Part shown: piece by piece, positions 26,920 through 29,193 of the stretch
Position numbering within the stretch: position 1 is the first letter of the stretch
How the letters are laid out: every line of letters begins with the position of its first letter
From: Candidatus Schekmanbacteria bacterium
GTDB taxonomy: Bacteria; CSSED10-310; JACPHN01
Direction of reading: 5' to 3'
NCBI GenBank assembly: GCA_016188575.1
Contig: JACPHN010000012.1
Coordinates: 8,197-72,196, forward strand
Length of the DNA stretch: 64,000 bases
Notes under the pieces: model-generated
The model's input: the letters and a program-made list of their open reading frames with translations, nothing else
The model's database searches: none
What the model was told of the DNA's origin: nothing
Made by a program: the position numbers and the translations under genes

Positions 26920-29193
26920 CTAGCCTCTTGCTGGGGGTTGTGCGCTACCCGTAGCGATGTTGATGGCGCCCGGCGGTTGAACGGTGAGCACGTCTATGTC
27001 GGCGTCGTCTTTGAGGAGCTCGCGATCCTCTTCGCTTGCGAGGCGAAAGATCTCCGCATCCAGGTCGATGCCACGCGAGTGGAGATCCCAGAGGAAGGTC
27101 GGCATCACGCCGGTGGGCAAAAACCGGCCGTGAACCTTGCCCCCGGAACCGACGCGAACCTGCCGAAAAACGAAAAGGTCTTGCGTGACGAATTCTGAGC
27201 CGCGCAACGTCACGATCTCCGTGACTTTCAGGACGCGGCGACTGCCGTCCGAGGACGATCGCCCCATCTGGAGGACCACGTTAATCGCTGCCGCGATCTG
27301 CTGCCGGATCGCGAGCGAAGGGATGTCGAACCCGGCGAAGAGCACGGTGGTTTCCAGGCGCGAGAGGGAATCACGCGGCGAATTCGCGTGAATCGTGGTC
27401 AGCGAGCCGTCGTGGCCGGTATTCATCGCCTGGAGCATGTCGAGTGACTCGCCGCCGCGGCACTCGCCGACCACAATGCGGTCGGGGCGCATGCGCAGAG
27501 CGTTGCGGACGAGGTCCCGGATCGTGATGGCGCCGCCGCCTTCAATGTTGGCCGGGCGGGCCTCCAAGCGCACGACGTGGTCTTGCGGAAGCTGCAGCTC
27601 CGCGGCGTCTTCGATCGTGATGATCCGCTCTGTACCCGGGATAAAACTGGCCATGACGTTGAGCATCGTCGTCTTTCCCGTGGACGTGCCGCCCGAAATC
27701 AGGATGTTCCGGCGCCCCTTGACACACGCGTCGAGGAAGCGCGCCATCTCCTCGGTCATGGCGTCGATCTTGATCAGGTCATGCACCGTGAATGGCTTCG
27801 AGGCGAACTTGCGAATCGTGATGGTGGGTCCCTGGATCGCCAGTGGAGGAATGATCGCGTTGACGCGCGAGCCGTCCGGCAGGCGCGCATCGACGAACGG
27901 CGTACTCTCATCAATGCGCCGTCCCAGTGGTGCAACGATGCGCTCGATCACGCCAAGGAGCTGACGGTTATCGGCAAACGCGCAGTCCGTAAGCTCGATC
28001 CGGCCATGCCGCTCAATGTAGATGCGGTCGTGCCGGTTGACCATGATTTCCGAGATCCTCTCGTCGCTCAGGAGGTTCTCCAGAGGGCCAAGACCCAGGG
28101 CTTCGTCGAGGAGCTCCTGGACGACCCGCTTGCGCTCCTCTCGTGACCTGATGAACGCGCCGAGCTCGTCGACGAGGTCGGAAATGGCTCGCTGCGTGCG
28201 CTGCCTCATTTCGTCGCGCTGGGCCGGGTCTGCACCTTCGAGCTTCTCGAGGTTGATCTTCTTGAGGTCGAGACGCTCCAGCAGGCGTTGGTGCACCTGG
28301 ACCTTCATGTCCTTGACCCGCTGAATATAGGCGTCGCGCTCGGCCGCATCCGAGAACTGCGTTTCGAGCTCCGGCCGCATGTCGAGGTTGGTCGATGGCC
28401 TGCCCTCCGTAAGCGCACGCCGCACCGGCAGCGTGTCCAGAAAGCCTTTGCCGCCGTGTTTTCGCGAGATGAAGTGAACCGCCAGGCGATCGATGCGCGT
28501 GGACAGTGCGCTCCTTGGGTAGGACAGTACGACGGGGTTGGCGCGCTTGATGGATCCGAACGCGGCTTCCGGCTCATACGGAAACTGCGCGAATACTTTT
28601 TTCCCGAGAGAGCTACTGATGGTGCCGAGGTCCAAGTCGTCTTTCAGGCCCGCCTGATTGACCACGATCTGCAACTGGTTACCTGGAAAATGCAGATTCC
28701 TCAGTTGCTCGATCGCCTGGCGGGTCTGGTTCACAGAGAGCACGTCGGCCGTAGTCACGAGCAGGATGAGGTGGCTGAGGTCAAGCACGGTGACGATGTC
28801 GTCACCAAACGGCCCGCCCGCATCGATGACGATGTACTCGTAGACGCGCGCCATGGCGCTGAGCACGCGGACGATTTCCTCGGGCTTGAGCGCCTTGAGC
28901 TGCTGGGGCGCATGCGCTACGGAAAGAATCTCGATGCCGCTCGGGTGTGCGGGCAAGAATCCTCGCAGCAAGTCCAGGTCGACATCGGACACGAAGGGCA
29001 GGACATCGCGAAACGTCTTGGGTCCCTCCATGCCGAGCAGAGCGCTGCAGTCGGCGGACAGCGAGGTCGCAAAGTCCACAAGCAATACGCGGGCCTGCGC
29101 CTGAATCGCCATGTCTGCGGCCAGATTGACCGCGAGGAGGGTCTTTCCGACACCGCCCTTGGTCGAGTAGACGCTTAGCACGCGTCCAGACAT
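26920..29193 (-). CDS. cpaF: fused CpaE/TadZ-like MinD/ParA ATPase domain + CpaF/TadA secretion ATPase, one 757-aa polypeptide
   Basis: N-terminal deviant Walker A STKGGVGKT (MinD/ParA/CpaE type). C-terminal CpaF/VirB11 family (GGTSTGKTTMLN, Asp box, His box TGHDGSLTTIHANS). Single uninterrupted frame. Confidence 0.85.
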   Translation of the reverse strand: MSGRVLSVYSTKGGVGKTLLAVNLAADMAIQAQARVLLVDFATSLSADCSALLGMEGPKTFRDVLPFVSDVDLDLLRGFLPAHPSGIEILSVAHAPQQLKALKPEEIVRVLSAMARVYEYIVIDAGGPFGDDIVTVLDLSHLILLVTTADVLSVNQTRQAIEQLRNLHFPGNQLQIVVNQAGLKDDLDLGTISSSLGKKVFAQFPYEPEAAFGSIKRANPVVLSYPRSALSTRIDRLAVHFISRKHGGKGFLDTLPVRRALTEGRPSTNLDMRPELETQFSDAAERDAYIQRVKDMKVQVHQRLLERLDLKKINLEKLEGADPAQRDEMRQRTQRAISDLVDELGAFIRSREERKRVVQELLDEALGLGPLENLLSDERISEIMVNRHDRIYIERHGRIELTDCAFADNRQLLGVIERIVAPLGRRIDESTPFVDARLPDGSRVNAIIPPLAIQGPTITIRKFASKPFTVHDLIKIDAMTEEMARFLDACVKGRRNILISGGTSTGKTTMLNVMASFIPGTERIITIEDAAELQLPQDHVVRLEARPANIEGGGAITIRDLVRNALRMRPDRIVVGECRGGESLDMLQAMNTGHDGSLTTIHANSPRDSLSRLETTVLFAGFDIPSLAIRQQIAAAINVVLQMGRSSSDGSRRVLKVTEIVTLRGSEFVTQDLFVFRQVRVGSGGKVHGRFLPTGVMPTFLWDLHSRGIDLDAEIFRLASEEDRELLKDDADIDVLTVQPPGAINIATGSAQPPARG

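Follow-up and report, generated by a model that had tools for sequence, protein, structure and literature searches.

Tad pilus systems normally encode the localisation ATPase TadZ (CpaE) and the motor ATPase TadA (CpaF) as separate genes. A 64,000-nucleotide stretch of DNA from a Candidatus Schekmanbacteria bacterium (contig JACPHN010000012.1, positions 8,197 to 72,196; hereafter the window) raises the question of whether one of its genes joins both in a single chain. A reading of the letters alone (the original prediction) had described an open reading frame (ORF) at window positions 26920-29193, minus strand, as a CpaE/TadZ-like ATPase fused in frame to a full CpaF, and had proposed to align both halves with TadZ and TadA references and to survey relatives for the same fusion. 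Our analysis indicates that the gene very probably encodes a TadZA-type hybrid ATPase of the Tad (type IVc, Flp) pilus machine. The fusion itself is already known ('TadZA', Bdellovibrio) and is widespread in metagenomes. The aspects that appear new are all modest, namely its broad taxonomic spread, a weakly supported grouping of its CpaF domain with KilF-like FHA-CpaF proteins, and the presence, at this locus alone, of three stand-alone FHA genes alongside the fusion.

The ORF encodes 757 amino acids (aa) from an ATG start and contains no internal stop codon. The GC content at third codon positions (GC3) remained between 0.75 and 0.85 in each 40-codon window over the region linking the two domains and carried no signature of a frameshift; the coding frame is therefore continuous, as originally predicted. 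The junction between the domains was found at about 28348-28461, close to the interval 28400-28500 in which it had been placed. Pfam assigned AAA_31/CbiA/ParA to residues 4-170 and T2SSE to residues 366-645 (211.5 bits for the latter). An AlphaFold2 model, calculated from a 60-sequence alignment of the family, reached a mean predicted local distance difference test score of 84.5, with values of about 90 for residues 1-244 and low confidence for the linker of residues 245-282. No linker column reaches 60% conservation in the family, and the family alignment revealed no linker motif in common with Bdellovibrio. In the window gene, a TadZ/CpaE without the receiver-like domain is genuinely fused to TadA/CpaF in one chain.

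The motor half was readily identified and bears out the description of a full CpaF. Compared with the Caulobacter CpaF structures it gave an E-value of 5e-121, the next family following at 4e-39, and the superposition on Caulobacter CpaF 8RJF yielded a Foldseek template modelling (TM) score of 0.78 at 46% identity. Its closest similarity was to CpaF and not to PilB, PilT, GspE or VirB11, with the layout of helical bundle, N-terminal domain and C-terminal domain. Besides the predicted Walker A motif GGTSTGKTT (residues 501-509), the residues K507, T508, E528, D529, E577, H594 and H602, among them those of the Asp and His boxes, were invariant in the 60-sequence alignment. The family profile matched CpaF with 576 bits, and its alignment to structure 9E24 started at residue 65 of that protein. 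Caulobacter CpaF has a segment of about 64 residues before the aligned region, so that TadZ and the linker replace only the N-terminal leader of canonical CpaF. The canonical pairs of Aggregatibacter, Caulobacter and Pseudomonas (structures 8RJF and 9E24) occupy the same slot and share both catalytic folds. They differ in being separate proteins and in having a TadZ that bears an atypical receiver domain at its N-terminus, whereas the window protein is fused and has none.

The N-terminal half carries the deviant Walker A motif KGGVGKT at residues 12-18 within a ParA/MinD fold that spans residues 1-244, in agreement with the original prediction. The best match in both structure and sequence was 3EA0, a 'ParA family ATPase' of 245 aa from Chlorobium tepidum (Foldseek TM score of 0.92, root-mean-square deviation of 2.0 Å over 240 residues), which ranked above FleN, MinD and FlhG. 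Like the N-domain, 3EA0 has no receiver-like domain; it differs in standing alone and in its Walker A, KGGDGGS, which is of the atypical TadZ type. The family profile scored 132 bits against 3EA0, 97 against MinD and 38 (37.8; E = 6.8e-9) against 3FKQ, the TadZ of E. rectale; this last match, weaker than that to MinD or FleN, covers the ATPase domain at residues 142-345.

The assignment as TadZ draws on genomic context and on relatives. An exhaustive HMMER search with residues 1-262 against 1.8 billion cluster representatives showed that most of the 150 closest representatives at 50% clustering are proteins of 380-420 aa which match at residues of about 140-385. Among the top 100 relatives of the N-domain, Pfam detected Response_reg in 42, TadZ_N in three and T2SSE in seven; one of these 100 (among P0121-P0220) also has a Secretin domain. 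The 80 best genome loci were searched with a hidden Markov model (HMM) derived from the fused N-domains. It matched, in 47 of the loci, the ORF directly upstream of a separate tadA, with approximately 100-250 bits, which upholds both the TadZ-like nature of the domain and the view that the two genes are normally separate. All eight of the tadA-adjacent ORFs scanned with Pfam contained a ParA-type domain behind an N-terminal extension of 130-550 aa, with a receiver domain (Response_reg) detectable in four. In two-gene loci, each tadZ ORF free of contig-end truncation had an extension of at least 129 aa, with roughly 130-180 aa for the 47 genes as a set; the extension was absent from all 15 fusions analysed. 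Further TadZ architectures were met in the loci L024, L025 and L044, where three tadZ ORFs measure 670-810 aa from stop to stop and place the ATPase domain at residues of about 400-790.

The absence of the receiver-like domain from the window protein, which had likewise been predicted, does not result from a misplaced start. The Walker A begins at residue 12, 11 residues past the ATG, and a spacer of 185 nucleotides separates that ATG from the secretin stop codon, so that no receiver-like domain could be encoded upstream. The published consensus of the TadZ Walker A is K/RGGxGxS/T (bioRxiv 10.64898/2026.07.08.737194). KGGVGKT fits this type, while the fold matches 3EA0, FleN and MinD, and other members of the fusion family carry atypical TadZ versions such as KGGEGTT, KGGVGQT and KGGGGAS. 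Three independent lines settle that the N-domain is a TadZ: the layout of its relatives, the HMM matches next to tadA and the atypical Walker A motifs within the family.

The same architecture recurs well beyond the window. Of the 120 best database matches, at least 104 are proteins of 690-770 aa whose only CpaF-type Walker A lies past residue 430; they cover 92-96% of the protein at 43-51% identity and originate from NCBI, JGI, ENA and Logan assemblies. Some family members are already labelled 'CpaE/CpaF' by JGI. Other database proteins among the top matches, with 775-1158 aa, carry two to three CpaF-type Walker A motifs per chain according to a regular expression search (P0002-P0007, P0010-P0013, P0015 and P0019, except P0005); P0002 and P0003 have three, and P0005 (802 aa) has one, at residue 583. 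These multi-motif proteins look like covalently tandem Tad motor ATPases.

As tblastn over residues 3-716 joined neighbouring tadZ and tadA genes into one match at most genome loci, fusions were scored there by a single-ORF test with the domain HMMs. True fusions were found in 12 of the 80 best loci, including those of Bdellovibrio sp. HCB288 (complete chromosome), Pseudobdellovibrionaceae, Bdellovibrionales, Oligoflexia, Omnitrophota, Elusimicrobiales and WOR-3. The order secretin-fusion-TadB, mostly with RcpC ahead and never with a separate tadZ, was seen in Bdellovibrio sp. HCB288, in the closest relative, in a metagenome-assembled genome (MAG) of Myxococcota, in an Omnitrophota genome and on the metagenome/MAG contigs L004 and L086.

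In a neighbor-joining tree of the CpaF domain, all TadZ fusions and eight FHA-CpaF (KilF-like) proteins formed one clade, with all 47 two-gene loci outside; the bootstrap value of this clade was approximately 51 of 100. In the tree of the TadZ domain the fusions were exclusive in the point estimate at bootstrap values of 2-12 of 100. A single origin, or few fusion events, is suggested by these trees. The FHA-CpaF loci (L045, L053, L055, L058, L060, L062, L073 and L077) had their FHA domain confirmed by Pfam and none has an adjacent tadZ; the labels of their MAGs are Lentisphaeria, Myxococcota, Chromatiales, Spirochaetaceae, Deltaproteobacteria, Gammaproteobacteria, Thauera and one uncultured bacterium. 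In Myxococcus xanthus, the Tad-like Kil system for predation contains the FHA-CpaF fusion KilF (eLife 2021, PMC8460266). KilF resembles the window protein as a Tad motor with a fused N-terminal regulatory module in an FHA-rich locus. The N-terminal module of KilF is FHA, whereas that of the window protein is a ParA/MinD-type TadZ and FHA resides on three separate proteins.

The closest described counterpart is the 'atypical TadZA hybrid' of tad locus 1 in Bdellovibrio bacteriovorus, reported in a preprint of July 2026 to consist of a TadZ without the atypical receiver domain, a flexible linker and TadA (bioRxiv 10.64898/2026.07.08.737194). In that organism TadZ and linker were necessary and sufficient for binding the polarity hub RomR, and TadZA moved dynamically between the poles. 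Genes for TPR, FHA, PAS and histidine-kinase proteins lie near tad; there is no dedicated TadV, and PilD is used (bioRxiv 10.64898/2026.07.08.737194). The preprint contains no survey of the distribution of the fusion, and its main text mentions neither Omnitrophota nor Bdellovibrionota. The window locus shares the architecture, the order RcpC-secretin-TadZA-TadB, the lack of TadV and the proximity of TPR, FHA, PAS and histidine-kinase genes. It belongs to another phylum-level lineage and its linker is not conserved; the alignment with the Bdellovibrio sp. HCB288 fusion consists of one collinear, full-length high-scoring segment pair over residues 18-716 at 40% identity. The window further differs by three FHA genes and tadC in the same operon and by an alanine in place of the aspartate equivalent to Asp40 of MinD.

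From these comparisons a mechanism can be proposed. By analogy with CpaF, the motor half would form a hexamer under the TadB/TadC platform and drive extension and retraction of the pilus with ATP. The tethered TadZ domain would serve as a built-in docking or positioning module, as work on TadZ/CpaE and the Bdellovibrio preprint suggest. The fusion would fix the ratio of TadZ to TadA at 1:1 and tie the motor to a partner in trans, spatial or regulatory in nature, because the window protein lacks the receiver-like domain on which canonical TadZ relies for this. In Bdellovibrio this partner is RomR; in the window, the three FHA proteins and the TPR (and PAS) proteins encoded downstream can so far be named only as candidates. 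Six tethered TadZ domains per hexamer might allow up to three ATP-sandwich dimers. In cryo-electron tomography of Caulobacter the location of CpaE was only guessed, and a ring around the CpaF ring was suggested; the ratio imposed by the fusion fits that suggestion.

Asp40 of MinD is critical for hydrolysis. The TadZ domain probably binds ATP, as it retains Lys12, Lys17 and Asp124 of the Walker B, and is probably a poor hydrolase because Ala42 stands in place of the aspartate equivalent to Asp40 of MinD. The family consensus at this site is Asp-Leu-Asp, and the Asp40 position itself is occupied by Asp in 75 and by Ala in two of the 104 members. The module might instead be a nucleotide-locked or dead scaffold, a permanent dimerisation or assembly tether by which the CpaF hexamer is stabilised or gated, and not a positioning switch that cycles with ATP; we regard this as possible but clearly the less probable option. 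Ala42 speaks for it, since the D40A exchange in MinD traps the ATP dimer, and canonical TadZ binds ATP with little hydrolysis. In about 30% of the family, moreover, the signature lysine, the P-loop lysine or the aspartate has been lost. However, the full Lys/Lys/Asp set is retained in 49 of the 104 members, so that hydrolysis may be relevant to the majority of the family. FleN also lacks the aspartate in the alignment and yet retains ATPase activity, so that the residue may not be decisive. Finally, TadZA of Bdellovibrio is highly dynamic in vivo (bioRxiv 10.64898/2026.07.08.737194).

The other alternatives to a TadZA hybrid made as one chain fared worse. An internal translation start in the linker would additionally release a stand-alone TadA and produce a mixture of fused and free motor subunits, and Met271 within the linker and Met295 just past it are available as start codons. 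Neither is preceded by a well-spaced Shine-Dalgarno sequence, for GGAGGG lies about 22 nucleotides upstream of the Met271 ATG and AAGGA directly abuts the Met295 ATG. With Met271 located among the non-conserved columns of the linker, we consider such a start unsupported and improbable.

Slightly less credible still is that the N-domain is a generic ATPase of the MinD/FlhG/ParA type, recruited independently and tying the motor to a division-like or flagellar-like positioning system. This reading can claim that the top NCBIfam model for the N-domain was minD_arch (65.9 bits), ahead of the actinobacterial CpaE/Ssd model (56.6 bits), that the structures of FleN, MinD and Soj outranked 3FKQ, and that KGGVGKT is in itself a MinD-type and not an atypical TadZ motif. 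MinD and FlhG (FleN) indeed share the fold, the deviant Walker A KGGxxGKT with its signature lysine and the Walker B. Yet both NCBIfam scores were far below their cut-offs (201.75 bits for minD_arch), as was that of minD_bact (41.7 against 212.9 bits). GKT is also kept by many relatives of canonical architecture, and no C-terminal membrane-targeting helix as in MinD was identified, the chain running instead into CpaF. No min genes, and thus no minC or minE, were found in the window and no flagellar genes nearby. Together with the tadA-adjacent HMM matches, the receiver domains of the nearest relatives and the atypical motifs in the family, these results render a generic MinD origin very improbable.

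A merger of neighbouring tadZ and tadA genes by an assembly or sequencing error (lost stop, frameshift or chimeric join) is conceivable, given that the canonical genes abut within a few nucleotides, that one wrong base could merge them and that the database search found the exact protein on one contig only, but it is the least probable alternative and effectively refuted at the family level by the single ORFs in 12 genome loci, one of them on the complete chromosome of a Bdellovibrio isolate, by the continuous GC3 and by the uniform lack of the receiver-like domain in the fusions, where a plain merge would have kept the N-terminal extension of two-gene tadZ; with more than 100 independent sequences of the same architecture, an artefact is very unlikely.

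Several observations nevertheless weigh against the identification as a TadZA hybrid with a partner in trans. The only structure named TadZ, 3FKQ, matches the N-domain weakly, a search with the single sequence having failed to recover it at E ≤ 1, and the curated models give the domain no TadZ call. The C-terminal half was assigned 331 bits by TIGR03819, a model of a conjugal-transfer-associated TadA subfamily, which is below its cut-off of 373 bits; no general CpaF equivalog model in NCBIfam matched above threshold. The comparison with Bdellovibrio was made with strain HCB288 and not with the B. bacteriovorus HD100 protein of the preprint. Neither a RomR-like nor a receiver-domain gene occurred among the scanned ORFs of the window. 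With a home-made FHA HMM, FHA ORFs were found to flank one of 18 TadZ-fused loci (that of the window), all eight FHA-fused loci and none of 60 others; as a general partner of TadZA, the FHA genes are ruled out.

On the minus strand, the fusion gene follows the secretin and precedes tadB/tadC within a complete Tad/Flp operon (Table 1).

Table 1. Features of the tadZA gene and of the surrounding Tad operon, in window coordinates
Feature	Position	Strand	Remarks
tadZA, TadZ-TadA hybrid	26920-29193	-	One ORF of 757 aa, plus stop
TadZ/CpaE-type ParA/MinD-fold ATPase domain, aa 1-244	28462-29193	-	No receiver-like domain; model, Foldseek, profiles
Deviant Walker A KGGVGKT, aa 12-18	29140-29160	-	Signature Lys12, P-loop Lys17
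Ala42 codon (MinD Asp40 position)	29068-29070	-	Family consensus Asp; Ala in 2 of 104 members
Inter-domain linker, aa 245-282	28348-28461	-	Low model confidence; length and sequence vary in family
CpaF N-terminal helical bundle, aa 283-366	28096-28347	-	Helices 283-308, 323-344, 351-366
CpaF N-terminal domain, aa 367-478	27760-28095	-	
CpaF C-terminal ATPase domain, aa 479-716	27046-27759	-	Asp box, Walker B, His box
CpaF Walker A GGTSTGKTT, aa 501-509	27667-27693	-	
C-terminal tail, aa 717-757, and stop codon	26920-27045	-	Tail disordered, non-conserved
Sigma-70-like match TTGACA-18-TATGCT	29261-29290	-	About 68 nt upstream of ATG; consensus match only
Secretin RcpA/CpaC	29379-30938	-	T2SS-T3SS_pil_N, BON, Secretin; directly upstream of tadZA
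RcpC/CpaB	30999-31862	-	
Pilin block	32230-34874	-	Pfam; equivalent block in L085
Two Flp-like ORFs	within 34578-34874 and 34366-34662	-	Leaders G/QMTASY and G/QTTVEW by eye; no Pfam match
TadE	33694-34347	-	
TadG-like gene	32618-33859	-	
Pseudopilin-like ORF	32230-32658	-	
tadB	26063-26911	-	T2SSF platform; directly downstream of tadZA
tadC	25129-26040	-	T2SSF platform
Accessory operon tail	19992-25110	-	
FHA+PAS	23581-25110	-	
FHA+TPR	22611-23543	-	
FHA+TPR	21071-22603	-	
DUF192 (COG1430)	20665-21324	-	
TPR	19992-20639	-	

Neither a further ParA-type Walker A nor a second CpaF was detected in the 64-kb window, and the fused domain is therefore the only TadZ-like module of the locus. A prepilin peptidase (TadV/CpaA, Peptidase_A24) was missing from the Tad operon and from the other window ORFs scanned; the Myxococcota locus L001 has one. 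The scanned window ORFs likewise included no Ser/Thr kinase or phosphatase. The FHA proteins of the window match other fetched loci, Kil-like ones included, via the FHA domain only and have no full-length counterparts there. DUF192 looks like a frequent Tad accessory gene, with homologues by BLASTP in 28 of 85 other fetched Tad loci and, in the Omnitrophota genome, a position directly after the fusion (L003, 12248-12598). In the spacer between the secretin and tadZA (29261-29345, minus strand), an inverted repeat recognised by eye, CCAGGGCCA...TGGCCCTGG, precedes the sigma-70-like match; the two elements could form an internal promoter or an attenuator for tadZA.

Further afield, dnaA (Bac_DnaA, DnaA_N, Bac_DnaA_C) is encoded at 35581-37098 on the minus strand, about 700 nucleotides upstream of the first Flp-like ORF, so that the Tad operon adjoins the region of the probable replication origin. 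Large predicted secreted hydrolases also lie in the vicinity (51629-58027, minus strand, and 42102-44753, plus strand); they comprise a PA14/GDSL lipase and two subtilases, of which one has FG-GAP repeats and the other fn3. A patatin-like phospholipase is encoded at 3625-4869. These hydrolases are compatible with a predatory or degradative lifestyle without being evidence for it.

As natural 'Rosetta-stone' evidence, the fusion would indicate that TadZ/CpaE works in direct contact with TadA/CpaF at a ratio of 1:1. The preprint presents TadZA as something atypical of B. bacteriovorus; the present survey finds it again in numerous uncultured lineages, each time without the receiver-like domain, and positioning by a cue in trans should therefore apply widely. 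For the window, the downstream FHA, TPR and PAS genes provide a candidate set of partners, and the annotation calls for correction, as NCBI names the protein 'TadA' and so leaves out its TadZ half. More speculatively, and in our estimate rather unlikely, the TadZ-fused and FHA-fused CpaF motors may represent one old Tad lineage (Bdellovibrionota, Myxococcota, Omnitrophota, Elusimicrobiota and the MAG studied here) whose motor bears a regulatory or positioning module of its own and which is specialised for attacking other cells, or attaching to them, in a contact-dependent manner. Were this true, the locus, with TadZA and three stand-alone FHA genes, would stand midway between machines of the Bdellovibrio type and of the Kil type, and its uncultured host would be a candidate contact-dependent predator or epibiont.

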